Part shown: one piece after another, positions 1-56,932 of the stretch
How positions within the stretch are numbered: the first letter of the stretch is position 1
Layout: each line of letters begins with the position of its first letter
Origin: an uncultured Gammaproteobacteria bacterium
GTDB lineage: Bacteria; Patescibacteriota; Patescibacteriia; Magasanikbacterales; GWA2-37-8
Assembly: GCA_964535515.1 (NCBI GenBank)
Contig: CAZHTA010000002.1
Coordinates: forward strand, 684 to 64,683
Length of the DNA stretch: 64,000 nucleotides
Reading direction: 5' to 3'
Position numbers and translations under genes: made by a program
The notes under the pieces: model-generated
What the model was told of the DNA's origin: nothing
The model's database searches: none
The model's input: the letters and a program-made list of their open reading frames with translations, nothing else

Positions 1-105
1 TAAATTAATTATTTGTGGCTAATAACTCCCAAATATGATTATTTACTAAACAGAGCTAAGATTAGCCAAAAATATCACTTATCCACTTAAAATACTACCA
101 CTATA

Positions 106-134
106 TTGACAAAAAGGCAAGTTTATGATAATAT
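106..134 (+). promoter_or_regulatory. sigma70-like promoter TTGACA(106-111)-17nt-TAATAT(129-134) upstream of GC-rich non-coding transcript
   Basis: Canonical -35/-10 hexamers with 17-nt spacer read directly; sits about 35 nt upstream of the abrupt switch to GC-rich sequence. Confidence 0.4.
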
Positions 135-140
135 ATTTAG

Positions 141-806
141 TCATTTAGATAATCGTCCGATATCTGCATAGATTTCTATCTATATAGATACCGCTCGGTT
201 ACCGCGCACCGAGGGGGGCCCTCCATCTGGGCTTTGGTATCAAGCGCGTCCTTTCTTTGGATCATCCCATACCTTGGCAGCGTTCGCTGTATGGGAGGTC
301 GGCCAGCTACGTGTGTAAGCTGGGCCACGCAAGTGGTTACTCGAACGCTCTCCTGCCTATTGCCACGCTCTCCAGGCAATCGGTGTACGACGACTTCGGT
401 CGTTGAGTAGGGAGAAACCAACGGAATCGTTGGGAGCAAAAATGGATCAGCACACTGATCCGACTCGTGGTTGGGCAAGCTTCGTCCGACCAACGAGAAC
501 ACTGGGTTCCTGCAAGCAGGGAGCAATTCTGCTTCAGGACGGGCCAGACGATTCTGGCAGTTTCCACCCTGACCTCGGGGGCATGCTCGCGACTACCGCG
601 TCGTGTAGACCATCGGTCGGAATGGCCAACCCCTCCTCTCTCGAGGAGGACACGCCGTCGACACGGTCTAGGGAACTCTAAAGCTCGAGGTAGGGACAAC
701 TACGGGTCCCGGGCCGACGTGTGAGTCGGTCTCTGCGTACGACTGGGATCGGAGGGGGCGCCGACAGCGCCCCCTCCATCCCCAAATTCTCATTGTTTTT
801 TTCTTG
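141..806 (+). ncRNA. candidate large structured ncRNA (unclassified), GC-rich, no credible ORF
   Basis: GC-rich block in an AT-rich genome with many local hairpins, including ACGAC-UUCG-GUCGU, CCUCCUC-ucuc-GAGGAGG and an 11-bp GGAGGGGGCGC/GCGCCCCCUCC stem. All six-frame ORFs overlap each other and are low-complexity. Promoter upstream and T-run/terminators downstream. Confidence 0.4.
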
Positions 807-829
807 AAAGAGAATAGTGAAAAATAAAA

Positions 830-858
830 AATTCCGTTAATAGCGGAATTTTTTGTTT
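830..858 (+). terminator. intrinsic terminator (AATTCCG-loop-CGGAATT then TTTTGTTT)
   Basis: Perfect 7-bp stem directly followed by a T-run; lies downstream of the GC-rich transcript and of an earlier GC hairpin (745-783) plus T7 run (796-802). Confidence 0.5.
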
Positions 859-906
859 CAAATTAATAACCTACTTTTTTACCAGCTAAAAAATTAAAAA
901 CAGATA

Positions 907-935
907 TTGACTCTCAAATATTTTTTTGTTACTAT
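907..935 (+). promoter_or_regulatory. sigma70-like promoter TTGACT-17nt-TACTAT for GC-rich small ORF
   Basis: Hexamers read directly; AGGGGA Shine-Dalgarno about 8 nt upstream of ATG at 968. Confidence 0.4.
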
Positions 936-967
936 CATACCCGGAAGAAAAATCTAGGGGACTCCAC

Positions 968-1297
968 ATGGCATTCGCTGACGCCAAATCCTTGATAAAG
1001 CCACTCACACTGCAAGATGCAGAGCTGTACGTCGGCAACCACAGACCGACAAAGGGTCGGATCGTGAGCCACTCAGAAAACACCAGAGGGCCGCTGTCTG
1101 GCATCATCGCCATTCAGTTGAAACTCCCAAACGGTGACTCCTACCACTGCGCCCCACTGACCGATCCGCTTGGCCTGAGGAAAGTCAACGAAGAGTTCTC
1201 GGTGACCCTGGAACTACGGGGCCGAACCATCCACCTAGAAATCAGCTCAGAACGGTACAACCGGCATGGCGCCAACAAGTCCAGCCACACCTTCTGA
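968..1297 (+). CDS. hypothetical protein (109 aa), GC-rich, foreign-looking composition
   Basis: ORF track frame (track start TTG 926; ATG at 968 has an SD). GC-rich codons. No recognisable domain. Followed by a terminator. Confidence 0.45.
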   Translation: MAFADAKSLIKPLTLQDAELYVGNHRPTKGRIVSHSENTRGPLSGIIAIQLKLPNGDSYHCAPLTDPLGLRKVNEEFSVTLELRGRTIHLEISSERYNRHGANKSSHTF

Positions 1298-1322
1298 TCT
1301 TCTTCCACTTCGGAGGACACAC

Positions 1323-1360
1323 CCCACGCTAGCGAATTCGCCCGTGGGGTTCGCTATTTT
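1323..1360 (+). terminator. intrinsic terminator (CCCCACG...CGTGGGG stem with inner GCG-AATT-CGC, then T-rich tail)
   Basis: Inverted repeat read directly, followed by ttcgctatttt. Confidence 0.5.
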
Positions 1361-1367
1361 CACTCAA

Positions 1368-2465
1368 CTAATATCTTTTTTCAATTACACTCTGTACCAT
1401 ACCAACCATTAAAAGATTAACAATTAAAGACGAACCACCATAACTAACAAAAGGCAATGTCACACCCGTAACTGGTAATACTCCCAAGTTAGCACCGACG
1501 TTAATAACCAACTGACTAAAAAATACAATCGTCACACCACTAACAACTACAGCAGCAAAATCATTATCGGAATGTTTGATAATTCGAATTAATCGCCAAA
1601 ACAAAAAACCAAACAGACCTAAAACTGCAGCTGCACCCGCGAAACCCAATTCTTCACCAATTACTGAAAAGACAAAGTCCGTTTGTGCTTCTGGTAAAAA
1701 TCGTAATTGACTCTGCGAGCCAAAGCCCAGTCCCCGACCAAAAAACTTACCTGAACCAATAGCAATTGCTGCTTGATTAGTATTGTAACCAGCACCTAGT
1801 GGATCTGACTCAGGATAAATAAAAGTTAACACCCGATCTTTTTGATAATCTTGTAAAAGAAAAAACCAACCAAAAACTGCCGCGGCTGTTACTGCAACCA
1901 TCAAACCAACAAGATACAAACGACGCGCCCCAACCAAACACATAATACCAAACCAAACTAGACCCAGTATTACTGCCGATCCAAGGTCGGGTTGCAACAT
2001 CACCAAACCAATTGCTGATAAAGTAACGGCCCCAGTACCAAAGAAAAAAAGCGGACGCTCAAAACGTCGACCAAAACGATACACAATGTAAGCTAAAACA
2101 AGAATCAAACCCCACTTTGCCAATTCCACCGGTTGAAAAGAAAAACCCGCAATAGCAAACCAACCGCGCGTGCCACGAATAGTCGCACCAAAAAACAAAA
2201 CTGCTAATAGTAAAATTAAACAAAGAAGAAAAAACCATTTTGCATAGGAACGAAAAAAACCGCTTTGTCGACTCGAAGCCCAAAACATTAAAACCGTACC
2301 AATTAACAATGCGATTGATTGCTTGCGAAAATATACCAATTCCTGACCGCGTGAGAGATCTACACTGTAGATAGCCGCCAAACCGATCAAAATCAAAAAA
2401 AACACGGCCCCAGTTAATCCCCAATCAAAATTGCGCCATGAAAACTTAGAAAAAAATCCCGACAT
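1368..2465 (-). CDS. SEDS-family peptidoglycan glycosyltransferase (RodA/FtsW)
   Basis: About 10 TM segments. Motifs GTRGW, FQPVELAK, PEAQTDFVFSVIGEELG and PFVSYGGSS are typical of FtsW/RodA. Confidence 0.85.
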   Translation of the reverse strand: MSGFFSKFSWRNFDWGLTGAVFFLILIGLAAIYSVDLSRGQELVYFRKQSIALLIGTVLMFWASSRQSGFFRSYAKWFFLLCLILLLAVLFFGATIRGTRGWFAIAGFSFQPVELAKWGLILVLAYIVYRFGRRFERPLFFFGTGAVTLSAIGLVMLQPDLGSAVILGLVWFGIMCLVGARRLYLVGLMVAVTAAAVFGWFFLLQDYQKDRVLTFIYPESDPLGAGYNTNQAAIAIGSGKFFGRGLGFGSQSQLRFLPEAQTDFVFSVIGEELGFAGAAAVLGLFGFLFWRLIRIIKHSDNDFAAVVVSGVTIVFFSQLVINVGANLGVLPVTGVTLPFVSYGGSSLIVNLLMVGMVQSVIEKRY

Positions 2466-2470
2466 AGTTT

Positions 2471-3433
2471 TTAGCTTTCCGGGGGAAGATATACCGAATT
2501 GTTATAAATGTCAATTAGAGGAAGCACTTTTACATCAGTCACATTTAAACCAACCACAAAACTTCGTAAATCAACCGCCCGTGTCTCGCCTGATTTAAAA
2601 CGTGGTAAATTCAAAGACAGAATACCGACTAACGAGTCACCCTGATACAAACCAACCTGAAAATTAGTATCTGCAAAAGAATATGAACTAGCATTACTTA
2701 GATTGAATTTTATAATATTCGCCGCCGCCCCTTCTGGCCCACCCGAACGTAAAAAAGAAAAATCACTAACTTTAAAATTCAAACGCTCTGCCTGCCACGT
2801 TGCCACATCAACAATATCGTGATTGGAAATACGGCGCCATTGCCAATTACTGATCACCAGCTCTCCCCCACTCGGATAATCTGATTGATCAAAACCTAAA
2901 TATGTAACCATCCTGGTTTCTCCTGGCAAAAGAAAAGAGTGCTTGGCTGGAGTCGGTGTACCATCAATTACAAAATAGTAATCAAAAGAAATATAAAAAC
3001 GACTATTAGGATTAGTTACCTCTCCTATCAAATCATATTTTTTTACCCCTCCAGGCAAAATCTGTGTACCCGCAATTAAAAGTGGTGCCGGAGAATATGC
3101 GGGATGAAAAACAGTGTAATCATAAAAATATGATAAATCACGATCTAACTTACTTCCACTTTCCAAACTATACAAAGCTAGGCTAGCACCCTTAACCAGA
3201 ACAAACAACCAAAAAATAACAGACAACCCAATTAAAACCCCAACAGCTACGCGATACAAAAGAACTCTGTTGCGTGCGAACCAAAAACCCCACTTAAATT
3301 CACTTGTCGTAAACTCAGACGTCGGATCAGTATAACGAGTAAAACTAGGCTTAGGTAACTTAGAAGTATTATCCGAAGTTGGTGTACCAGCACTGGAACG
3401 ATCACCGTTTTGTTGACTATAAATATTGAGCAT
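2471..3433 (-). CDS. hypothetical membrane-anchored protein (single N-terminal TM, extracytoplasmic domain)
   Basis: ORF track. One hydrophobic helix near the N-terminus. Appears co-transcribed with the SEDS gene. No recognisable domain. Confidence 0.5.
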   Translation of the reverse strand: MLNIYSQQNGDRSSAGTPTSDNTSKLPKPSFTRYTDPTSEFTTSEFKWGFWFARNRVLLYRVAVGVLIGLSVIFWLFVLVKGASLALYSLESGSKLDRDLSYFYDYTVFHPAYSPAPLLIAGTQILPGGVKKYDLIGEVTNPNSRFYISFDYYFVIDGTPTPAKHSFLLPGETRMVTYLGFDQSDYPSGGELVISNWQWRRISNHDIVDVATWQAERLNFKVSDFSFLRSGGPEGAAANIIKFNLSNASSYSFADTNFQVGLYQGDSLVGILSLNLPRFKSGETRAVDLRSFVVGLNVTDVKVLPLIDIYNNSVYLPPES

Positions 3434-3558: not shown

Positions 3559-6500
3559 ATGCCTATTCGAAGAATAATAAGGGGGAAGATAAAAGCAGAA
3601 AAACCAACTAAACCGGTAGAAGAAAAAGAGGAAAAAATTGAGATTGAACCAGAAATAATAAAAGCTACAATAACCCATAAAGGAACTAAGGAAAGTAAAA
3701 CTTCCTCAGAATACAGCGCTAAGAATATTACGGTTTTGGAAGGATTAGAAGCGGTACGTCGCCGACCTGGCATGTATATTGGTTCTACTGGTCCAGCTGG
3801 TTTACACCATCTTATCTGGGAAGTTGTCGACAACTCAGTCGACGAAGCTATGGCTGGCCACTGCGATCGTATTGAAGTAACTCTGCTCCCCGACCACATG
3901 GTAGAAGTACGTGATAATGGTCGTGGTATCCCAGTTGATATCCACCCTCAACAAGGCGTAAGTGCCTTGGAAGTTATTTTAACCAAACTACATGCTGGTG
4001 GTAAATTTGGTAATGGTGGCTATAAAATTTCTGGCGGTTTGCACGGTGTAGGTGTTACAGTTGTAAACGCTCTCTCTTCTTACTTAAAAGCTGAGGTTCA
4101 CCTTGGTGGAAAAATTTGGGAACAAGAATACACAGCTGGTAATCCACAAAAAAAAGTTAGGGCCGTTGGTACTTGTAAAGATACAGGTACCACTATTACC
4201 TTCCGAGCCGATGACACTATTTTTGAAACAACTAATTATGAATGGAAGGCGATCGTTGACCACCTACGTCAATATGCTTACCTTTCTAAAGGATTACATT
4301 TCATAATCTCCGATAAACGTAGTCCAGAAGAAAAAGCCGTTGATAAAACAGCAATCAGTTTCCCTAATCCAACTTACCAGTTTTACTTTGAAGGTGGTGT
4401 GGCTTCTTATGTTCGTTATATCAATCACAACAAAGAAGCTAAAGGAGAAAACATCTTTTACGCTGACAAAGAAGCGGACGACGTTAATGTCGAAATTGCT
4501 TTACAGTACAGCGAGGATTACACTGAATCACTTTTTGCTTTTACCAACAATATTCATAATCCTGATGGCGGTACCCACGTTCAAGGTTTCCGCACTGCTC
4601 TAACACGCGTCTTAAACAGTTATGCTCGTAACAAAAATATTTTAAAAGAGAAAGACGCCAACCTAACCGGCGAAGACGTACGCGAGGGTTTGAATGCTGT
4701 CATTTCCATTAAAATACGCGAACCACAATTTGAAGGACAAACAAAATCCAAATTAGGCAATACTGAAGCTAAAACAGCAGTTGAAACAATCATGGGTGAA
4801 GAATTTACCATCTTCTTGGAAGAACATCCTAAGGATGCCGAGGCCATTATTGGTAAATGTTTACTCGCCAGCCGTGCTCGCAATGCTGCCAAAATCGCGC
4901 GTGATGCCATTTTGCGCAAAGGTGCTCTAGAAGGATTTACTCTACCAGGCAAACTAGCGGACTGCTCTTCGCGTGATGCTGAAATTTCTGAATTGTACAT
5001 TGTTGAGGGCGACAGTGCGGGCGGATGTTTTGATGGAAATACCAAAGTTGCGTTGACTGATGGACGTAGCTTGTCATTTATAAAATTAGCAGAAGAATGG
5101 GAACAAGGTAAAACAAACTACTGTTACACAATAAAAAACAATGGCGAAATTGGTATTGAAAAAATATTACACCCACGCATTACCAAGAAAAACGCCACCG
5201 TAATTAAAATCACACTAGATAATGATGAAGAATTGATTTGTACCCCAGATCACAAATTTATGTTACGTGACGGTAGTTACGTCCAAGCTAAAGATCTAAA
5301 ATCCGACATTAGCTTGATGCCTCTCTACCGAAAAACTTCTGTTATAGGAGGTCGTATTACAATAGATGGATACGAGATGGTTCTAAACACAAATAGTAGA
5401 TGGAAATTTACTCATCTTCTTGCTGACGAATATAATTTAACACAAAATGTATATCCTCAAATTGAGAACGGACATAAACATCACAAAGATTTTAATAAAC
5501 TGAACAACAACCCAGATAACATAATCCGTTTGTCTAAAGAAGACCATTTACAAATTCACCGCGAACAGGCGCACAAAACTCTCCATCGTCCAGATTCTAT
5601 TGCTAAATGTAACGAAATTAAACGTTCGGCAATTTATAGAAAAAAAATCTCCGACACGATGAAAAATCTTGGTCCGATGTTAAGTGCCCGAGCCAAAAAA
5701 CAATGGCAAAACGAGGAATATAAAAAATTCATGACGCATAAATTTTTGGAATTTTATAATAACAACGCTGAATACCGAGAAAAAAATAACGAGCTGTTAA
5801 ATAAAATACAAAAAGAGTATTGGGGCAACCTAAACAACCGGACAACACAAGCTGAGCGTGTTAAGGAATCTTTTAAGAACCACCCCGACAGAAAAAAATG
5901 GTTAAGTGAATTAGCAAAAAACCAGTGGAGCAGTGCCGAACTCTTAAATTGGCGCGCACAACAAACCACCAAACAATGGACACCTGAATTTCGCACTAAA
6001 CGTCAACAAGCTTACGCCAAAACATATCTTCAACACAGCTTGTCCTTCGCTAAAACACTAGCCGAACGTGGATTAAATTTCATTTCCACTTACAACCAAG
6101 AAAGAAGCGCTTTGCCAAAACGTAATAATAACATTGTAAAATTTGAAACATTATTAAATCGTTTTTTTGCTGGCGACCAAAATCGATTAGTCGAAGCAGT
6201 GAACAACTTCAACCATAAAATTGTCAGAATAGAAAAAGTCACCAAAAAAGTTGACGTATACGATATTGAGGTGCCACACACCCACAACTTCGCTCTAGCA
6301 AGTGGCATTTTCGTACACAACAGCGCCAAACAAGGCCGCAACCGCGAATTTCAAGCCATTCTCCCACTACGCGGTAAAGTATTAAACGTAGAACGCGCAC
6401 GTCTGGACAAGATCTTAGCTAACAACGAATTGAAATCTCTAATTATTGCAATCGGCACTAATATTGGTGAACAATTCGATATTACTAAGTTACGTTATCA

Positions 6501-7053
6501 TCGTATCATTATCATGACCGATGCGGACGTTGATGGTGCCCACATCCGTACTTTACTTTTAACTTTCTTTTACCGCCATTTCCCTGAACTAGTAAACAAT
6601 GGTCATATATATATTGCCCAACCACCACTTTACAGTGTTAAAACTGGTAAAGAAATAAAATATGCTTACAATGATGAAGAAAAAGAATTGCTCCTAGCCG
6701 AATTAAGTAAAAACAAATCTGCTAAGGCTGAAGCAAAACAGAAAAAAGAAGAAGCTGAGGAAGAAGTACCAGCTGAAGAAAACGGTGAAGAAGGCGGAGA
6801 TGCCCAAGCTGAGTCAATTTTAGTGGGTGGAGTAAAAGTTAACATCCAACGTTACAAAGGTTTGGGAGAAATGAACCCGGAACAACTCTGGGAAACTACG
6901 ATGAATCCAGAAAAACGTTTGATGAAACAAGTAACAGTAGAAGACGCCGGACTAGCTAATGAAACCTTTGAAATTTTAATGGGCGAAGATGTCGAGCAAA
7001 GAAAAAAATTCATCCAGACCAACGCCAAATCCGTAAGTAATTTGGATGTATAA
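3559..7053 (+). CDS. gyrB: DNA gyrase subunit B, interrupted in-frame by an intein (extein plus intein = 1164 aa); about 45-aa N-terminal extension
   Basis: GHKL ATPase motifs (LEGLEAVRRRPGMYIGS, GLHHLIWEVVDNSVDE), the TOPRIM motif EGDSAGG split from SAKQGRNREFQAILPLRGKVLNVE, and the C-terminal tail. Confidence 0.9.
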   Translation: MPIRRIIRGKIKAEKPTKPVEEKEEKIEIEPEIIKATITHKGTKESKTSSEYSAKNITVLEGLEAVRRRPGMYIGSTGPAGLHHLIWEVVDNSVDEAMAGHCDRIEVTLLPDHMVEVRDNGRGIPVDIHPQQGVSALEVILTKLHAGGKFGNGGYKISGGLHGVGVTVVNALSSYLKAEVHLGGKIWEQEYTAGNPQKKVRAVGTCKDTGTTITFRADDTIFETTNYEWKAIVDHLRQYAYLSKGLHFIISDKRSPEEKAVDKTAISFPNPTYQFYFEGGVASYVRYINHNKEAKGENIFYADKEADDVNVEIALQYSEDYTESLFAFTNNIHNPDGGTHVQGFRTALTRVLNSYARNKNILKEKDANLTGEDVREGLNAVISIKIREPQFEGQTKSKLGNTEAKTAVETIMGEEFTIFLEEHPKDAEAIIGKCLLASRARNAAKIARDAILRKGALEGFTLPGKLADCSSRDAEISELYIVEGDSAGGCFDGNTKVALTDGRSLSFIKLAEEWEQGKTNYCYTIKNNGEIGIEKILHPRITKKNATVIKITLDNDEELICTPDHKFMLRDGSYVQAKDLKSDISLMPLYRKTSVIGGRITIDGYEMVLNTNSRWKFTHLLADEYNLTQNVYPQIENGHKHHKDFNKLNNNPDNIIRLSKEDHLQIHREQAHKTLHRPDSIAKCNEIKRSAIYRKKISDTMKNLGPMLSARAKKQWQNEEYKKFMTHKFLEFYNNNAEYREKNNELLNKIQKEYWGNLNNRTTQAERVKESFKNHPDRKKWLSELAKNQWSSAELLNWRAQQTTKQWTPEFRTKRQQAYAKTYLQHSLSFAKTLAERGLNFISTYNQERSALPKRNNNIVKFETLLNRFFAGDQNRLVEAVNNFNHKIVRIEKVTKKVDVYDIEVPHTHNFALASGIFVHNSAKQGRNREFQAILPLRGKVLNVERARLDKILANNELKSLIIAIGTNIGEQFDITKLRYHRIIIMTDADVDGAHIRTLLLTFFYRHFPELVNNGHIYIAQPPLYSVKTGKEIKYAYNDEEKELLLAELSKNKSAKAEAKQKKEEAEEEVPAEENGEEGGDAQAESILVGGVKVNIQRYKGLGEMNPEQLWETTMNPEKRLMKQVTVEDAGLANETFEILMGEDVEQRKKFIQTNAKSVSNLDV
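5026..6321 (+). other. intein (432 aa) inside gyrB with HNH-type homing endonuclease domain
   Basis: Starts with Cys directly after GDSAGG. Block B TPDH. Ends VHN followed by extein Ser (SAKQGR). Internal NGHKHHKDFNKLNNNPDNIIRLSKEDHLQIH resembles an HNH motif. Frame verified (5026-3559 and 6322-3559 both divisible by 3). Confidence 0.8.
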
Positions 7054-7090: not shown

Positions 7091-7122
7091 GATGGTTTTT
7101 TATTTCCTTCTATTTTGAACTA
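7091..7122 (+). terminator. intrinsic terminator after gyrB (AACCACC...GATGGTT then T6)
   Basis: Hairpin with one G-U pair followed by a T-run. Confidence 0.5.
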
Positions 7123-7180
7123 ATTCAAAACAAAAGGGACTTGGCGGTCCAGCTGTGCCCGTAAAGGGAGCTGGACCGCC
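7122..7180 (-). terminator. intrinsic terminator for minus-strand GC-rich operon (12-bp GGCGGTCCAGCT/AGCTGGACCGCC stem then T-run on minus strand)
   Basis: Perfect 12-bp inverted repeat at 7143-7180; the minus strand continues as aagtcccttttgtttt. Confidence 0.55.
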
Positions 7181-7264
7181 GAGATAGGAATGACGAGACG
7201 AACGACTCACCCCGATCATCCGACAGCCGCGAAGGCCGAGCAGACGAATCGAGGGGTGTGACGT

Positions 7265-7750
7265 TTAGTTTAGATCGGGGAGATCGAAAAGGCCGAGGAG
7301 CACACCGAATCCGTAAGCGACCCCATTGGTGACAATGGCGGCGCATAACCCCCACCAGATGGCCTCGAGGAAGTATCCGCACGAGAACCATGCGGAGTAG
7401 TCCTTCCCGTCTCCAGCCGCGAGCGCCCAGCGCCACCCATAGTTAGCGGCGAGGAGATGGAGCAACACCGCAACCACAGTGACCACCACCGCCAACGGCC
7501 GGCGGGCGTCGCTGTCCAAGTTGCTGCGGAGGACCAGTGCCCAAACAACCAGGGACACCACTGGCCCGATTGCGAAGGCCATGACCACGCCGAACCAATC
7601 GACTCCATCCAGCTTCGCGCTGCACCAGACGGAATCATCGTACCCGCCACCACCGGCCAACGCAAGGCCGGGGAGAAGGAACATTACCGTGAAGGCCACG
7701 GCGACCATCGACACCAGCAAGCAGGTTTTCCAGGACCTGTTCAAGTTCAC
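7265..7750 (-). CDS. small integral membrane protein (about 4 TM), GC-rich, holin-like by size and topology
   Basis: ORF track. Hydrophobic segments. ATGA start/stop overlap with the upstream CHAP gene (translational coupling). High-GC codon usage. Confidence 0.55.
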   Translation of the reverse strand: MNLNRSWKTCLLVSMVAVAFTVMFLLPGLALAGGGGYDDSVWCSAKLDGVDWFGVVMAFAIGPVVSLVVWALVLRSNLDSDARRPLAVVVTVVAVLLHLLAANYGWRWALAAGDGKDYSAWFSCGYFLEAIWWGLCAAIVTNGVAYGFGVLLGLFDLPDLN

Positions 7751-9159
7751 CTCCTAGACCAGCCCACGCAGGGCAAGTCTTCGATTGTTCCGCGAACCCA
7801 CCAGAACCCTCCGACGAATTCCTGGAGGGTGGCGCACTCGTACCAGCGTGAGGTATTTTGCTGAACGACACACACGGCATCGTCCTTCACCTCAACGACA
7901 ATCGCGACATGCCCAGGGGCACGATGGCTGTTAGCCGCCACACTCTCCCGACCGTCACGATCAAAGATCAGGATATCATTCACCGCCGGCTTCACCGGCG
8001 AACCGTTCAGGAGCACCGACAAGCCCTTAGCGTTTCCGCTATAGAAATAGCTGTCAGCGTGACCGGTGCGCTCCATGTTCCTATGACCCAGGACGGTGGC
8101 GTAGAACCGATTGACCAGCTCCACACACTGCCACCGTTGGCCATAGCCAGACCGCTCCGATTCACCTTCACCGCGGGGGTGCTGATGAATCTCCGCCCCA
8201 CGATAAAGGCCAACGACCGCTCCCTGCTCCGCTTTGATACCAGGCGGAACAAGGACCACCACACCATTCTTGTCTCCGATACGTGGGAACTGCTCCCCAC
8301 GACCAAAGATAAACGACATGACGGTATCGGTGTAATACCCGAACCGACCGTTGCCGGCCAATCCGAGCCACCCACTTGCCTCCCCGAAGGTCGGCCGATA
8401 GTGAGTGAACACCGACGCGGCACTCGACTTTTCCTCATTGTCCATCTGGATGCCCGAGAGCTCCCAGATGTAAACGAGATCGAAGCCAAGCAACGATATA
8501 TCGGACAATTTTTCCACCCGGAACGGATCCGTGCCGAAGCGCTTACCGTTCAAGTGAAAAAAGTGATAACCCCACCACTCGCCCTGATACTCGAAAGCCA
8601 GAACGAGGTGTGTGTTGATTCCAGCCTTTGCCGCAAGAACTTGCGGGTCCATGCGACTCTGCTGAAAGTGATAGCCGGCCACGTAAAGCCGACTCGAGGA
8701 CAACACCTTGGAGAGATCACTGTCGAACGGGACCAATTCCTTAATCTTGTCCTCAGTTGAGGTTGAGAAATCCTTGGTCCGATCAAAAACTTTGCGGAGG
8801 TCGTCCGCATTGTCCTGACCGAACCGCCAAGCCACCGTCACCTCGAGCTTTTGTCTGCCCAAAATGAAGTTAGCAGCCTGGATCACGGCCGAAGCGCAAC
8901 GCTCGTTGTCCCACATCGACTGCGGGATAAACGCCGGCACCGGGCCGTTACCCGGACGGTCCACAAGACTATCCAGGAGTGATCGCACTTCTACCGGTGC
9001 GCGCGGGCTAAGGGGGAACTTACTCCCCCATTCTTCTTCCACATGGTGACGAGCCACGCAGAAGATCGTTACGAGAACCATCACGACCGAAGTCGCAAAA
9101 ATCCCCGTCACAAAAATCGCGTTGCGCACTCGTCTGCGCTCGGTCCGGCTCAGTCTCAC
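7747..9159 (-). CDS. membrane-anchored protein with C-terminal CHAP-domain peptidoglycan amidase/peptidase, GC-rich (GTG start)
   Basis: N-terminal TM (IFVTGIFATSVVMVLVTIFCV). C-terminal QCVELVNRFY...GHVAIVVEV matches the CHAP catalytic Cys/His pattern. GAGGTGA SD before GTG. About 60% GC by eye. Confidence 0.6.
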   Translation of the reverse strand: MRLSRTERRRVRNAIFVTGIFATSVVMVLVTIFCVARHHVEEEWGSKFPLSPRAPVEVRSLLDSLVDRPGNGPVPAFIPQSMWDNERCASAVIQAANFILGRQKLEVTVAWRFGQDNADDLRKVFDRTKDFSTSTEDKIKELVPFDSDLSKVLSSSRLYVAGYHFQQSRMDPQVLAAKAGINTHLVLAFEYQGEWWGYHFFHLNGKRFGTDPFRVEKLSDISLLGFDLVYIWELSGIQMDNEEKSSAASVFTHYRPTFGEASGWLGLAGNGRFGYYTDTVMSFIFGRGEQFPRIGDKNGVVVLVPPGIKAEQGAVVGLYRGAEIHQHPRGEGESERSGYGQRWQCVELVNRFYATVLGHRNMERTGHADSYFYSGNAKGLSVLLNGSPVKPAVNDILIFDRDGRESVAANSHRAPGHVAIVVEVKDDAVCVVQQNTSRWYECATLQEFVGGFWWVRGTIEDLPCVGWSRR

Positions 9160-9370
9160 CTGTCACCTCGTGATTGTGTGGGTTGTTGACGTTTAGCAAA
9201 TATCTCCACAGCGATTGGCATCGCTGTCATTCCTATCAATTGTCAAAGATCTGTTTCCAAACAGCTAAAAGCCTCAGCTTCCGGCTATTCAAAGAAACAG
9301 ATAATAATAGCATAAATTAGCGAAAAAGTCAATATCCTGTCGTCTGTTATTACTATCCCCATTGAATATG

Positions 9371-9449: not shown

Positions 9450-9644
9450 ATGAGTATATTTACTGCAGTTAAGAATTACTTCGTTGATTCTTACGCGGAG
9501 ATGAAAAAAGTCTCTTGGCCAACCAAAAAACAAACTACTAATTACAGTTTGTTGGTTATTGGCCTATCAATCGGAATGGCAGTTTTCTTTGCTGTTCTAG
9601 ATTACGTTTTCAACCTTGGTATCGCACAAATGATTGCTCGCTAA
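9450..9644 (+). CDS. secE: preprotein translocase subunit SecE
   Basis: 64 aa, single C-terminal TM, directly upstream of nusG in the conserved secE-nusG-rplK order. Confidence 0.8.
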   Translation: MSIFTAVKNYFVDSYAEMKKVSWPTKKQTTNYSLLVIGLSIGMAVFFAVLDYVFNLGIAQMIAR

Positions 9645-10274: not shown

Positions 10275-10697
10275 ATGGCAAAAAAATTATTGACCCAAAT
10301 CAAATTACAAATCGTCGGTGGTGCTGCTAACCCAGCTCCTCCAGTCGGTCCAGCCCTTGGTCAACACGGTTTGAACATCCAAGGTTTCTGTAAAGAGTTC
10401 AACGACAAGACCCAAGATAAAAAAGGCGAAGTCGTACCAGTAATTATCAACGTTTACGCCGATCGCAGTTTTGACTTCATCATGAAGACTGCTCCAACTG
10501 CTGAGCTTATCAAAAAAGCCGCTAACATCAAAAAAGGTTCTGCTAAACCTCTACAAGAAAAGGTTGGCAAAATCACTAAAGCACAAGTCAAAGAAATCGC
10601 TGAAAAGAAAATGAGCGACTTGAACGCCAAAGATTTAGCCGGTGCAATGAGCATGGTTGAGGGTACTGCTAAACAAATGGGTGTGACGATTGAATAA
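10275..10697 (+). CDS. rplK: 50S ribosomal protein L11
   Basis: [26 protein letters not shown] is the hallmark L11 N-terminus. Confidence 0.9.
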
Positions 10698-10759: not shown

Positions 10760-11860
10760 TTAAACAATTAACATCGCATCCCCAAAACTATAGAACCGAT
10801 ACTTGGCTTCAACTGCTTTTTGATAACATTCTAAAGTAAATTCCCTATCACCAACAAAAGCCGACACCAACATTATCAAGGTTGATTCAGGTAAATGAAA
10901 ATTGGTAATTAAAGCATCCACCACCTTAAATTCAAACCCTGGCTTAATAAAAATATTAATATCTCCACTAAACGCTTCCAACCGTCCGCGCGTAACAAAA
11001 ACCCCTTCCAACGACCGGACAGCGGTTGTACCAACCACCACCACTCGTCTACCCTCTTCCTTGGCGATGTTTATCAACTGTGCATTTTTATCACTCAACT
11101 CCACCCATTCCGGATGCATTTTATGTTCTTCAACATTCTCGGTTTTAACTGGTAAAAATGTTCCTAAACCAACATGCAAAGTAACCTCTGCAAATTCTAC
11201 CCCCTGTTTTTTTAATTGTTCAATTAACTCAGGAGTGAAATGAAAACCCGCTGTTGGTGCCGCTACTGATCCTTCAACTTTAGCATAAACGGTTTGATAA
11301 CGCTCATCCAAATTCAACCCTGATACCTTACCAGCCATTTCTTTAATATATGGTGGCGTTGGCACCTCGCCATACTTATTAGCCTTTGCTCTCACTGTTA
11401 TATCATCATCTTTAAATTGTACTAGCACTGTACCATCCTCTTCTTTGGCAATCACTTCTGCAGAAAAATCTTCGGCAAAAACCACCTTCATTCCTAAGCG
11501 CAATTTCTTTCCTGGTTTAGCCAACACTTTCCACACCCCAAAATTTTCCATTGGCCGAACTAAAAATATTTCAATACTTGGTGCATTAAAAATTCGATCG
11601 GTTAAATCCTTCTTTTTAAAATCAAAAACATCTTCATCTAAAACTAACACTCCTTTTAGGCGTGCCTTAAATACTTTGGAGTTGTTCCAAACCAACAAAT
11701 CACCCGGACGTAAATATTCGCCAATATTAAAAAACTGACGATGGCTAATTTCTTTTGTTGAACGATTAATTACCAACAAACGTGATTGATCGCGTCTTTC
11801 TGCTGGTGTTTGGGCGATTAATTCTTTCGGTAAATTGTAATTAAAATCCGATGTTAACAT
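10760..11860 (-). CDS. queA: S-adenosylmethionine:tRNA ribosyltransferase-isomerase
   Basis: N-terminal FNYNLPKELIAQTPAERRDQSRLLV and overall length typical of QueA. Confidence 0.85.
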   Translation of the reverse strand: MLTSDFNYNLPKELIAQTPAERRDQSRLLVINRSTKEISHRQFFNIGEYLRPGDLLVWNNSKVFKARLKGVLVLDEDVFDFKKKDLTDRIFNAPSIEIFLVRPMENFGVWKVLAKPGKKLRLGMKVVFAEDFSAEVIAKEEDGTVLVQFKDDDITVRAKANKYGEVPTPPYIKEMAGKVSGLNLDERYQTVYAKVEGSVAAPTAGFHFTPELIEQLKKQGVEFAEVTLHVGLGTFLPVKTENVEEHKMHPEWVELSDKNAQLINIAKEEGRRVVVVGTTAVRSLEGVFVTRGRLEAFSGDINIFIKPGFEFKVVDALITNFHLPESTLIMLVSAFVGDREFTLECYQKAVEAKYRFYSFGDAMLIV

Positions 11861-11863
11861 ATA

Positions 11864-12721
11864 TTAACGCAAATACTTAGCCACATTACGGTTGTGCTCA
11901 TCTAATGTTTTAGCATAGTGCATACCACCCTCTGTGTCGCTCATAAAATACCAATAATCATTTTTCGTTGGGTAAATAGTGGCCTCAATTGCTTTTAAAC
12001 TTGGATTACCAATTGGCCCAAGTGGTAGACCAGGATATTTATAGGTGTTATAAAAAGAATCCAACTGACGATCTGCAGCGTTAATCGCTGGATCATTTTT
12101 ACCGGTAACATAATTTACTGTAGCACAAGATTGCAGTGCCCACCTCATTTTATTACGTCGCCAAAAAATATCTGCTACCAACCTCATATCCTCTGTCGTT
12201 GGCGCTTCCTTTTCTACCACTGATGCCATAGTGAGTACTTCAAAAAAATTCTTGTTTTGTTTTTTTATATCCGCTCGCATTTCTAGAGTAATTCGATCAT
12301 CTAAAACAGCAAATATTTTTTTAATAACTTCTTCTGGTTTGGCATCAGCATAAACACGATAAGTTTCCGGTAAAAAATATCCTTCATATGAAACATTACT
12401 AGTTTTACTATCAAACAACTCTGCCAAAGTACCAGTTGCTGCCCAACTTAATTCTGGCGCTACCACCCCTGATGCACGATAGTTTTTAGCTGGTTCACCT
12501 ACTAAAGAATACAACTCGTTATCATTTTTTATCAATCCTTTTTTAACCCAATCCGCTGCAATCTGACGCAAATTCCACCCCGGAATTATTGTGATGTTGA
12601 TTTCCTCTCGTGGTGGTGGTGGAATATACTTAGGACGGCTAAAGTAGCGATAACCAAAAAAACTCAATACTATTAATATGATTATTGCAAACAAAAAAGA
12701 ATTAATTCTTTTGATATTCAT
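11864..12721 (-). CDS. mltG: endolytic murein transglycosylase MltG (YceG family)
   Basis: N-terminal TM. YNTYKYPGLPLGPIGNPS motif is characteristic of MltG. Confidence 0.8.
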   Translation of the reverse strand: MNIKRINSFLFAIIILIVLSFFGYRYFSRPKYIPPPPREEINITIIPGWNLRQIAADWVKKGLIKNDNELYSLVGEPAKNYRASGVVAPELSWAATGTLAELFDSKTSNVSYEGYFLPETYRVYADAKPEEVIKKIFAVLDDRITLEMRADIKKQNKNFFEVLTMASVVEKEAPTTEDMRLVADIFWRRNKMRWALQSCATVNYVTGKNDPAINAADRQLDSFYNTYKYPGLPLGPIGNPSLKAIEATIYPTKNDYWYFMSDTEGGMHYAKTLDEHNRNVAKYLR

Positions 12722-14047: not shown

Positions 14048-14120
14048 GCGCCTGTAGCTCAGGGGTTAGAGCACTGCCCTTATAAGGCAGGGGTCGATGG
14101 TTCGAAGCCATCCAGGCGCA
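14048..14120 (+). tRNA. tRNA-Ile with anticodon UAU (reads AUA)
   Basis: Cloverleaf folded by hand: acceptor GCGCCUG/CAGGCGC, D-arm GCUC..GAGC, anticodon stem CUGCC/GGCAG with loop cuUAUaa, T-arm GAUGG-UUCGAAG-CCAUC. No encoded CCA. Confidence 0.7.
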
Positions 14121-14128
14121 CTAAACAT

Positions 14129-27048: not shown

Positions 27049-27162
27049 CTTGTTCCAAGACCTCCACAACAGTAAAAATTTTACTGCTCTGGAGGTTCGG
27101 TCTTGAAACAGGTGTAGTGCCTGAGAAAGGCGGCGTGCGAATGCACAACCGAACCGACGGGA

Positions 27163-27504
27163 CTAGCCCTCAGAGAAGACCACATCATACTCATCCACGT
27201 CACGATCAGGGATGTCGAAGAAGGCGATGGTCTCCGAGAACAGCCGCTTCAAGGTGAAACGGTCGCTGGACAAGACCGGCTCCCAGTTCAACAGCGAAAA
27301 AGTGGTCGTCCTCCTGAACCGATAATCGCTGTCATGATGCCAACGCAGAGTCAGGCCCGCCGGATCAAACCCTGACCCACCCTCCACTCGACCGCTGCTT
27401 ATCGTCCCATCGGAGCGATACCCAACGATCCTGGCACGAAGCGCGAGATCATCTTCGTGCTCTTCGCAAAACCTGCGCACTTCCCCCCAAGTGGACATCT
27501 CCAT
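27163..27504 (-). CDS. hypothetical protein (113 aa), GC-rich island C
   Basis: ORF track. GC-rich codons unlike neighbours. No TM and no recognisable domain. Confidence 0.45.
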   Translation of the reverse strand: MEMSTWGEVRRFCEEHEDDLALRARIVGYRSDGTISSGRVEGGSGFDPAGLTLRWHHDSDYRFRRTTTFSLLNWEPVLSSDRFTLKRLFSETIAFFDIPDRDVDEYDVVFSEG

Positions 27505-27641
27505 GCCCCCTTCTACGGTTGCATTAACAATTCCACCCTAACAAAAAAATGGGGGGGGGGTGTCAACTACCCATACCACCCTCTTTGCTCTTATTCCTTT
27601 TCTTCTGTATAATATTGATAGTTAAGTTAATTTAAAAAAAT

Positions 27642-37230: not shown

Positions 37231-37315
37231 AACAACCATAAACAAAAACACCATCCGCAAAAACCTCCTCGCTATATCTACAAATATTTGTAAACATAGC
37301 GGGAAGCGGATGGTG
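37231..37315 (-). terminator. intrinsic terminator for GC-rich island D gene (CACCAUCCGC...GCGGAUGGUG 10-bp stem, then T-run on minus strand)
   Basis: Inverted repeat 37249-37258 with 37306-37315; the minus strand continues tttttgtttatgg. Confidence 0.5.
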
Positions 37316-37342
37316 TCTTGTTGTCTCCTCTCCCCGGGCGCT

Positions 37343-37921
37343 TCATGAAATTAGCGCCTCCTCGATGGCGGCCAAGAAACGGGAGTGCTCGGTCCACAAA
37401 GGGCCGTTGTCGTAGGTTTGTCCTTCTTTTGATACACGACCGAGTGTGTGGTAGTAGCCGCGTTCTTCGAACAGAGAAGCCACGAATTCGATCTCGTCAT
37501 CAGACCAAGCTGAGCCGAGTTCGATGACATCGACTCCACGTTGGACTTCGGGATAGTCAGCCCCGAACGCGAGCAGCTCGCGGAAGGTCGCGGGACGAAG
37601 GTGTCTCCGCCTGAAGCGCGCGAGAATTTCTTCGGTGCGCGCTTTTCTCTTCATGTCAACGAGCACCAAGTCTGTGGTGCTCGCGACACCCCTTTCTTCA
37701 GCACTGTCGAAGCGGGCCATATTCACTCTGATATCGCAGCTGCTGTAGTCCCCAGCGCGTACCAACTCCGCGGTAGGCTTGCGGGGATCGTTGTCGATCC
37801 GGTAGATCCCCTTTTCTTCGACGAGGCGTCGCCTTAGAAATCGGCGAACCTCATCCGGGCACTTCGTTAGTAGTGCCTGGTCTTTCTCCGAGAACAGCTG
37901 AAAGTACGCTTCGGGTTCCAT
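37343..37921 (-). CDS. hypothetical protein (192 aa), GC-rich island D
   Basis: ORF track. High-GC codons. No TM and no recognisable domain. Confidence 0.45.
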   Translation of the reverse strand: MEPEAYFQLFSEKDQALLTKCPDEVRRFLRRRLVEEKGIYRIDNDPRKPTAELVRAGDYSSCDIRVNMARFDSAEERGVASTTDLVLVDMKRKARTEEILARFRRRHLRPATFRELLAFGADYPEVQRGVDVIELGSAWSDDEIEFVASLFEERGYYHTLGRVSKEGQTYDNGPLWTEHSRFLAAIEEALIS

Positions 37922-38131
37922 TTGGCCGTTCCTTTCGTTCTAGGGGTTAACTTGGCCATCTTGGCCGAAGGGAAGTTGGGATTTTCGGTCCCAGCCTTCT
38001 TTTGTGAATATTTAATTAAAATTAAACATACCAAAAGAAAGCAGGGACACATTTTTAAAGAACAACGTAAAATATCACGTTTCATTGATTTTGTCAAGAA
38101 TACCTGTTAAAGTATGGTGGTATTTATACCT

Positions 38132-56126: not shown

Positions 56127-56163
56127 AAAAAAATCCACCTGCCAAATTAGGCAGGTGGTTTAA
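56127..56163. terminator. bidirectional intrinsic terminator (CCACCTGCC-aaatta-GGCAGGTGG) shared by radA(+) and the island E genes(-)
   Basis: A-run upstream gives a T7 run on the minus strand; TTTAATT on the plus strand. Confidence 0.55.
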
Positions 56164-56282
56164 TTCCAGGGAGGCCGACGACGGACACATCCAGTTCGTC
56201 GCGTACATGTACGCATTGAACCTTCAGCATCCGTCGCCGGCTATGAGGAGGGAGAACCGTAGAACCTAAGGCCAAAGACGCC

Positions 56283-56540
56283 TCAGGCAGTCTCGTCGGT
56301 CGGAGCGACGACAGCCTGAGCAGCGGCCTGCTGCTCAATCTCGTACTCGTACACCGCTCTGTGTACGACGCTGACCGGAATCAGCGCCAAGGGCGGTGTC
56401 TCATCATGACCCCGCTTCACGAGCGCGCACACGAAGTGTTGCTCACGAAACGTTCCTCCTATTTTGGGAGGCGGGCCCGGGCGCGTCACATCGACAGCCC
56501 ACTTGTCACCTTTCTTGGTCGTGAAGAACTTATCGCCCAT
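56283..56540 (-). CDS. small hypothetical protein (85 aa), GC-rich island E, downstream member of an overlapping pair
   Basis: ORF track. ATG with GAGG 6 nt upstream. Overlaps the upstream gene by 11 nt. N-terminus KKGDKWAVDV is faintly DUF2188-like. Confidence 0.45.
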   Translation of the reverse strand: MGDKFFTTKKGDKWAVDVTRPGPPPKIGGTFREQHFVCALVKRGHDETPPLALIPVSVVHRAVYEYEIEQQAAAQAVVAPTDETA

Positions 56541-56763
56541 CTCGAGCCTCTTTCGCGGCAGGTGGCACCGGAACCACCAAGTTCATGGCGTTCATGCGTC
56601 CGAAACGCGCCCCGTTTTTGGGGTTGAACACCAAGACCTCGACCGCCTGCTGACCCTCGACGAAGTCGACGTGTGCTGCTGCGACGAGGAGCTTCTGCTC
56701 CCGGTCGCTGCGCTTATACACAACGACCTTCCCGTCGAGTCGCGGATCTCTATTCTTCGCCAC
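56530..56763 (-). CDS. small hypothetical protein (about 77 aa, GTG start), GC-rich island E, upstream member of an overlapping pair
   Basis: Start moved to GTG at 56763, which has a strong GAGGAGG SD 5 nt upstream (the track Met at 56883 lies in AT-rich sequence). Candidate TTGACT-17-TACGAT promoter on the minus strand at about 56850-56880. Confidence 0.4.
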   Translation of the reverse strand: MAKNRDPRLDGKVVVYKRSDREQKLLVAAAHVDFVEGQQAVEVLVFNPKNGARFGRMNAMNLVVPVPPAAKEARDGR

Positions 56764-56932
56764 TTCTTCCTCCTCGGAAATCCAACCCAGCCAAAATGGC
56801 GGGAAAAGCGAGGCGTCGTGCCTCTCAGTTCCACATGGGTTAAAAACAGAAATAATCGTATCAAAAAACCAGCAAAAAGTCAATGCTTTGCCGGTTTTAA
56901 TGGAAAAAATATATTTTAAAATTTTTGTCTCA

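Follow-up and report, generated by a model that had tools for sequence, protein, structure and literature searches.

Phage morons, reportedly defined for the lambdoid phages by Hendrix and colleagues, are autonomous promoter-gene-terminator units that are inserted between conserved genes. Other described systems of a comparable kind are the small tRNA-associated integrative islets, of which the tycheposon-type islands of Prochlorococcus are an example, and the integron cassettes. Here we compare these with the surroundings of ORF109, a 109-codon open reading frame (ORF) near the left end of a 64,000-nucleotide stretch of contig CAZHTA010000002.1, referred to below as the window. Judged by homologues of the rodA gene next to it, the host genome belongs to Candidatus Magasanikbacteria, within the Patescibacteria, a phylum in which about half of the genes are orphans. 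The description that fits ORF109 best is that of an orphan-gene cassette, moron-like and horizontally mobile, in the chromosome of a member of the Patescibacteria, and as such it is a known kind of thing; we put the probability that it is a real gene on a mobile, self-contained GC-rich cassette at roughly 0.75. Its unusual property is a lasting GC-richness that is hard to account for by simple recent gene transfer.

As in a moron, one small gene has a promoter and a factor-independent terminator of its own (both recognised computationally here), deviates in composition, is present or absent between close relatives, occupies an intergenic slot, and has a function unrelated to that of its neighbours. 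The differences are that ORF109 lies in a cellular chromosome and not in a prophage, beside housekeeping genes, that the phage and viral collections hold no relative of it, and that the gap in composition persists across deeply diverged copies. Searches of phage and plasmid collections in both protein and DNA modes gave only noise, and the family profile found nothing in viral contigs. The unit works like a moron but is not classed as one, because it is flanked by rodA, gyrB and an inferred uvrB and has no phage or viral matches.

Positions 907-1360 of the plus strand read as one autonomous transcription unit, consisting of a promoter, a Shine-Dalgarno leader, an ORF, and a structured 3' untranslated region (UTR) with a terminator. 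The sigma-70-type promoter (P2, 907-935) has TTGACT at 907-912, a 17-nt spacer and TACTAT at 930-935, with 9 of 12 matches in a consensus scan, and a TG two bases upstream of TACTAT gives it an extended -10. The Shine-Dalgarno sequence AGGGGA (956-961), as read from the sequence, ends 6 nt upstream of the ATG at 968. The coding sequence runs from 968 to 1297 (109 codons plus TGA at 1295-1297) and encodes a protein of 12.1 kDa with a pI of 9.25 and no hydrophobic segment. After the stop codon comes a segment conserved in the homologue loci (1298-1321), with a small hairpin, UCUUCC-ACUUC-GGAGGA, at 1301-1317, and then the intrinsic terminator, itself a conserved 3' element (1322-1360), in which two mutually exclusive stems are followed by TTTT. 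The stems are CCCCACG/CGTGGGG (the alternative, 1322-1349) and TAGCGAATTC/GGGGTTCGCTA; the main hairpin, 33 nt past the stop, occupies 1330-1356 with 10 pairs, directly before the TTTT. The original prediction, which gave the same promoter, Shine-Dalgarno sequence and ORF and a GC hairpin terminator at 1323-1360, is thus borne out in its coordinates.

The same prediction also described the unit as foreign in composition to its surroundings, with an ORF of more than 55% GC and a codon choice unlike that of the neighbouring genes, and the measurements agree. ORF109 has 55.8% GC (GC at the three codon positions, GC1/2/3, 0.545/0.436/0.691), compared with 39-40% GC and a GC3 of 0.29-0.32 for its neighbours rodA, ORF320 and gyrB. 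Its codon adaptation index (CAI), with 29 core genes of the window as the reference, is 0.48, and that of the core genes themselves is 0.61-0.74. In its codon preference, ORF109 clusters with four further genes from GC-rich islets in the window.

Length alone is no proof that such an ORF is coding, since chance ORFs of 116 and 120 codons are present in the adjacent non-coding GC-rich block. However, ORF109 has a three-base periodicity (chi2 14.5), with GC3 highest in its own frame, whereas the neighbouring RNA block (190-780) has none (chi2 0.5). An exhaustive HMMER search of 1.84 billion representative proteins found three full-length homologues of 107-117 amino acids with 42-46% identity (phmmer E = 2.9e-15, 2.1e-10 and 2.2e-10, over residues 1-109 of ORF109). 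A profile search, in which family members score 145-174 bits, added a fourth, and the four are 39-46% identical to ORF109 over the full length. The alignment of the five sequences (A3) has 21 invariant residues, including M1, H35, SGII (44-47), C61, L64-T65, G85 and T87, and conservation spans the protein from Met1 to the C-terminal His-Thr-Phe, of which T108 and F109 are invariant. Because the conservation begins at Met1, the start is the ATG at 968 and not an upstream TTG. Pairwise dN/dS, the ratio of nonsynonymous to synonymous change, is 0.17-0.39 within the family. ORF109 is a real protein-coding gene under purifying selection.

A scan for promoters gave 8 sites in 3 kb, against 4.0 +/- 1.9 expected, so that single elements could be chance matches. 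The combination of the elements is not chance, given the periodicity, the homologues conserved from end to end, and the same promoter in two of the homologue loci. Folding of the RNA of the unit is mildly better than that of shuffled sequences (z = -2.0 on the plus strand and -1.0 on the minus strand), as expected for an mRNA with a terminator.

The product of ORF109 is predicted to be a small, basic, soluble alpha/beta protein. The AlphaFold2 model has a compact mixed alpha/beta fold, with the per-residue confidence score (pLDDT) rising from 38 with the single sequence to 81 with the five-sequence alignment, at a predicted template modelling score (pTM) of 0.72. The family has no match in Pfam, NCBIfam, PHROG, PADLOC or PDB, nor any fold match, in keeping with the earlier remark that the protein carries no recognisable motif. 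A papain-like or permuted NlpC-P60 Cys-His hydrolase was considered on account of the invariant H35 and C61, and had no fold support. The protein might have a conflict or accessory role (defence, anti-defence, or toxin/immunity-like), through the invariant His35 and Cys61 or through binding of nucleic acid, but this is a weak guess and at best a doubtful one.

With ORF109, the orphan family, a very rare one, has five members, the other four being clusters found among about 15 billion proteins and denoted P0001 to P0004; P0001 is MFH2136022.1, a 'hypothetical protein' of a Patescibacteria group bacterium. The hosts of three of these four clusters could be placed, and each time they are Patescibacteria. 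With the single ORF109 protein as query, a word-seeded search of 5.8 billion protein clusters and tblastn-confirmed scans of genome, metagenome and viral contigs found nothing. The members share with ORF109 their length of 107-117 amino acids, the invariant residues, the promoter layout and a homologous 3'UTR, and differ from it in their genomic neighbours.

These neighbours are also different in each case, the four homologue clusters occupying four unrelated neighbourhoods. P0001 adjoins an HTH-XRE/DUF2178 pair and two tRNAs. P0002 lies among consecutive genes for small membrane proteins, after which come a 494-aa protein and a MORC-like HATPase. P0003 has a 476-aa membrane protein on one side and an ArsP-like permease on the other, and uvrB is 2.8 kb away. 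P0004 is flanked by a 473-aa protein and an 82-aa gene, and a tyrosine recombinase is encoded at a distance of 1 kb. There is no synteny of the flanking genes among the homologue loci, and the flanking genes are not mutually homologous. Since family members are found in unrelated neighbourhoods, the gene evidently moves. A GC-rich protein of 84-90 amino acids (ending ..DYPC..) accompanies P0001 and P0004, but this partner is missing here: the 84/90-aa, 76-aa and 96-aa neighbour proteins of the other loci are all absent from the window by tblastn. Tandem paralogues were considered for two of the fetched loci (L083 and L084; fetched loci are given L numbers), where the adjacent 117-aa genes proved to be unrelated membrane proteins.

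The regulatory parts travel with the gene, both the promoter layout and the 3' element. The three solitary copies have (A/T)TATTGACT, a 17-nt spacer and a -10 hexamer (TAnnnT), 56-61 nt upstream of the ATG; the homologue loci with this TATTGACT-17 layout are L081 and L087. All of the homologues have GGAGG at a Shine-Dalgarno distance equal to that in the window. The 3'UTR is homologous across four members of the family; a common consensus fold for these four is not supported, so that the homology is one of sequence only. After the stop codon, the window and L081 have in common the segment TGATCnTCTTC..CTTCGGAG.A, and the window, L087 and L088 have in common GGAGGA. Window positions 1321-1360 are identical to L087 5881-5920 at 36 of 40 positions, against a nucleotide identity of only 53% for the two coding sequences, and the chance probability of this excess is about 5e-7 by a binomial estimate. 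Two of the differences are in the terminator stem, and both preserve pairing (T.G to C-G and G-C to G.U). The terminator of L088 retains the CCACG..CGTGG and GGTTCG parts. A metagenome scan with the terminator pattern CCACGCN{8,12}CCCGTGGGGTTCG gave 66 matches, all by chance, on contigs of 47-77% GC and with no family member, and the same pattern in viral sequences gave three matches, again all by chance.

In two of the loci there are traces of how the gene may have been integrated. In L088 the 90-aa gene and P0004 form a cassette between direct repeats of about 80 nt (9480-9560 and 10430-10520), each repeat consisting of a terminator hairpin and a degenerate tRNA 3' end. A genuine tRNA (about 10975) and a tyrosine recombinase (11328-12245) both lie less than 2 kb from the cassette. 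The same repeat is found in L081 (1420-1497), upstream of its family copy. These repeats look like the signature of serial integration at a tRNA gene. For the window copy no comparable tRNA-derived repeats were seen, its left border lying beyond the start of the window.

The lineage of P0001 and P0004 invites comparison with the tRNA-associated islets, and has in common with them an array bounded by repeats with a tRNA 3' fragment, a real tRNA and a tyrosine recombinase, as well as recurrent slots that hold different cargo in different genomes. The window copy differs in having no tRNA or repeat within reach, and the ORF109 unit in being smaller than 0.5 kb with no mobility gene of its own. 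The tRNA nearest to ORF109 is a tRNA-Ile with anticodon TAT (UAU), found by ARAGORN at 14048-14121. The ORF109 unit also resembles an integron cassette, being a compact single ORF that ends in an imperfect inverted repeat, with a stack of different cassettes at a single site that follows a resident promoter-like region. However, the units in the window have their own promoters and the stack includes a non-coding RNA, and the 3' inverted repeat of ORF109 is found only with its own family, there being no shared attC.

On its right side, ORF109 is convergent with rodA/ftsW (1368-2465, minus strand; Pfam FTSW_RODA_SPOVE, E = 1e-88), whose stop codon is 8 nt past the T-run of the terminator; this is the core cell-wall gene that the original prediction had noted as adjoining. 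Its product is 91% identical to RodA of L001, the closest relative, and 88% identical to that of L159. L001 keeps the gene order of the window all the way from the secE/nusG/L11 side, by way of gyrB and ORF320, to rodA, but there uvrB begins 2 nt after the rodA stop, and window positions 1-1366 have no counterpart. Most of the 40 relatives examined have no marked rise in GC in the first few hundred bases past rodA. In L159, which is syntenic, the same slot holds an unrelated, moderately GC-rich cassette for a 194-aa membrane protein, encoded on the strand opposite to that of rodA and uvrB; this cassette has a promoter and a terminator of its own and the same orientation as the cassette in the window. 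In L087, whose UvrB is about 72% identical to that of several Magasanikbacteria-like loci, a self-contained GC-rich cassette at 2870-3400 is divergent from uvrB, and consists of a TTGACA-17-TATAAT promoter, a leader of about 130 nt, an ORF for an 88-aa Cys-rich (Zn-ribbon-like) protein, and a GC hairpin terminator. Because L159, L087 and the window have different cassettes there, the space upstream of uvrB is a recurrent insertion slot.

In the window, uvrB is presumably just to the left of the start. A shared 'ttagccaaaaa' hairpin arm and a TTGACAAAA motif point to this, and a TTGACAAAA(A)G motif is found upstream of uvrB in L159 and L087 at the place equivalent to P1, the promoter of the neighbouring RNA unit; both observations are suggestive only. 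Island A, the GC-rich block made up of the RNA unit and the ORF109 unit, is thus an insertion specific to this lineage, at a hotspot that lies between rodA and (probably) uvrB, since L001 is without it and L159 has a different cassette in the slot. We propose that the ORF109 unit would have been inserted, together with an unrelated RNA cassette, into the recurrent rodA|uvrB slot, and that it may spread by recombination as a moron-like cassette. The lineage of P0001 and P0004 would use a tRNA-associated integration site, with a tyrosine recombinase nearby. Once in place, the terminator could insulate rodA from antisense read-through.

The composition of ORF109 is not peculiar to the window. The original prediction had allowed for homologues that are uniformly AT-rich in relatives, and the opposite was found: all four are GC-rich in AT-rich contexts, with 51.6-57.2% GC and a GC3 of 0.53-0.73, the flanking genes having 34-44% GC. 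Synonymous differences between family members are saturated (proportion of differing synonymous sites, pS, 0.64-0.74), except in the pair P0001/P0004. The same pattern is seen in a second GC-rich block of the window, island B (7116-9225), with minus-strand genes at 9159-7747 and 7750-7265 for a 470-aa protein (N-terminal transmembrane segment, C-terminal CHAP domain) and a 161-aa membrane protein. Island B is absent from L001; L159 has it in the same secE|gyrB slot, where the junctions are conserved, and L160 and L020 have it elsewhere. In the four genomes examined, including the window, it is GC-rich every time. Between the window and L159, core genes are near synonymous saturation (pS 0.57-0.76), and the CHAP gene has a GC3 of 0.67 in the window and 0.59 in L159, compared with 0.29-0.43 for core genes.

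A rough survey was made of 648 coding-like ORFs, some of them ORF-calling artefacts, in about 1 Mb of fetched Patescibacteria loci. In 56 of the ORFs the GC3 excess was 0.20 or more, and these ORFs form 32 cross-genome homologue pairs. In 78% of these pairs the homologue has an excess of at least 0.15; the other 22% are intermediate (0.13) or, in short loci, have no computable baseline, and none measured below 0.05. Among the control pairs, 0 of 5139 had an excess of at least 0.15. Large GC-rich genes in the relatives include OPT and POT/PTR2 peptide transporters, with a GC3 excess of 0.26-0.40 (L023 16376-18586; L031 13304-15409; L032 14322-16133 and 16589-18793; L052 18007-19755; L036 7860-9536), so that the GC-rich genes are not confined to small orphan proteins. 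From these comparisons, GC-richness is a stable trait of these accessory families, and not obviously a fading mark of recent transfer.

The left part of island A is a candidate structured non-coding RNA of about 600 nt and about 60% GC (141-790, plus strand). It has its own promoter P1 (TTGACA-17-TAATAT, 106-134, plus strand, from the consensus scan), its own terminator hairpin (744-784), and a fold z-score of -7.0 on the plus strand and -5.4 on the minus strand. An AT-rich, bidirectional terminator-like hairpin at 822-858, with 18-nt arms that are 89% complementary, flanked by an A-run and a T-run, separates the RNA unit from the ORF109 unit. Rfam searches of 100-1450, at gathering thresholds and at E<=10, gave no credible family for either the RNA or the 3'UTR.

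The original prediction joined the RNA and the ORF in one RNA+protein module. On this reading the two would have been acquired as a whole and would act together, for example as a type III toxin-antitoxin-like pair or a small ribonucleoprotein. They are indeed adjacent, on the same strand and of similar GC, both are missing from L001, the RNA is strongly structured, and a 12-nt sequence, GGAGGACAC(G/A)CC, follows a hairpin both in the RNA (645-656) and in the 3'UTR of ORF109 (1312-1323); this 12-mer is, however, within chance for a region of 1.5 kb. The RNA has no counterpart in any fetched locus, nhmmer finding nothing similar in any of the four homologue loci, and the recurring partner in two family members is instead the 84-90-aa protein. 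Type III antitoxins of the ToxIN kind are tandem direct-repeat RNAs upstream of the toxin, whereas Tandem Repeats Finder (TRF) found no tandem repeats in window positions 1-1500; nor does any family member have a match in Pfam, PADLOC or PDB that would relate it to the ToxN, AbiEii or CptN endoribonuclease families. We consider a joint module highly improbable, with nothing beyond adjacency tying the two together in function. Because the RNA is absent from the homologue loci, each unit has its own promoter and terminator, and the slot in L159 has an unrelated cassette, a better reading of the RNA and ORF109 is as two independent cassettes stacked in a single insertion hotspot. More sceptically, ORF109 could be no gene at all: the frame might be open by chance within a second non-coding RNA of high GC, or the sequence might be an assembly chimera or a vector scar. 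The chance ORFs of similar length next door, the mildly negative fold score and the fact that ORF109 is uncalled in the deposited record could all be taken in this way, as could the adjacent NheI and EcoRI sites (GCTAGC+GAATTC) in the terminator loop at 1329-1340. A cloning scar is nevertheless ruled out, the homologous terminator of L087 reading GCAAGCGAACTC, with neither restriction site. Chimerism is very unlikely on comparative grounds, because GC-rich homologous units with AT-rich flanks on both sides are found between Patescibacteria genes in independent assemblies from NCBI, JGI, ENA and Logan. With the periodicity, the homologues, a dN/dS below 1 and a confident AlphaFold2 model as well, this explanation is largely refuted already, and we find it scarcely credible.

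For a real gene on a mobile cassette, the question is then why it is GC-rich. The obvious answer would be recent horizontal transfer from a GC-rich donor outside the Patescibacteria, such as a host bacterium, with the GC content as a transient scar that has not yet ameliorated. The GC3 of 0.69 against 0.30 in the host genome, the low CAI and the lack of ORF109 in the closest relative would all fit, and horizontal gene transfer and genomic islands have been described in Patescibacteria (PMC12455944). Yet no GC-rich donor genome carrying the family was found among the 1.84 billion representatives or the 5.8 billion clusters; all four homologues are in AT-rich contexts, those that can be placed being in Patescibacteria; and every member is GC-rich despite saturated synonymous sites. 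The promoter of ORF109 is host-like and AT-rich, and the CHAP cassette has kept its slot, its junctions and its high GC3 in both the window and L159 while the core genes became saturated. Recent transfer of this kind is therefore unlikely. We suggest tentatively, and with the odds still against it, that ORF109 belongs to a GC-rich pool of accessory genes in Magasanikbacteria-like Patescibacteria that is distinct in composition and actively maintained. Such a pool may consist of self-contained cassettes (orphan proteins, the CHAP hydrolase with its membrane partner, OPT/POT transporters, possibly structured RNAs) that may keep about 52-60% GC (GC3 0.55-0.75) through synonymous saturation in hosts of 35-44% GC. 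Selection on mRNA or codons could be the cause, as could GC-biased gene conversion at exchange hotspots or continual re-seeding from an unseen GC-rich replicon. A literature search on persistently GC-rich cassettes found nothing.

Several points weigh against the description of ORF109 as a gene on a mobile cassette, or limit what can be built on it. The family has only five members, so that dN/dS and the AlphaFold2 model rest on little data. The exact 109-aa protein is absent from the 15-billion-protein collection, as is its 123-aa extension from a TTG start. The CHAP protein of the same contig is present there, and from this it seems that ORF109 was not called in the deposited annotation. The promoter and terminator of ORF109 are consensus matches only, and at the insertion in the window no target-site duplication or recombination site was identified, the left border being off the window. 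No fold or family match offers a clue to function, and the guess at a conflict role draws only on the patchy distribution and on loose hints from the neighbourhoods (the HTH-XRE gene in L081 and the MORC-like HATPase in L084).

As a single gene, ORF109 is of modest interest, being one more orphan. It does mean that the deposited annotation seems to have missed a conserved gene under selection, and it provides a clean minimal example of accessory gain in Patescibacteria, by promoter-to-terminator cassettes in recurrent slots beside core genes. If the persistence of GC is general, a 'foreign' composition would not serve to date transfers as recent in this phylum, and there would be either an undiscovered GC-rich mobile reservoir or selection on GC-rich transcripts. 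If there is indeed a maintained pool, its GC would be actively maintained, contrary to the standard picture of amelioration.

The window has three more islets of 55-58% GC with a coding-type periodicity, at 27077-27565, 37285-38005 and 56130-56852, and their codon usage matches that of ORF109. They include ORFs of 113 and 192 amino acids on the minus strand, for which a Pfam scan gave no match, and, at 56130-56852, two overlapping small minus-strand ORFs in a toxin-antitoxin-like layout. Another Magasanikbacteria-like genome, L030, also has several GC-rich islets, and in it a type III hammerhead ribozyme (1455-1508; 52 bits, above the Rfam threshold) is found at the start of a GC-rich 133-aa ORF. 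Finally, gyrB of the window (3559-7053) codes for a GyrB of 1164 amino acids, compared with 731-742 in L159 and L001. The roughly 437 extra amino acids (5012-6321) start with CFDG and end with VHNS, and are intein-like, with a homing-endonuclease-like middle.

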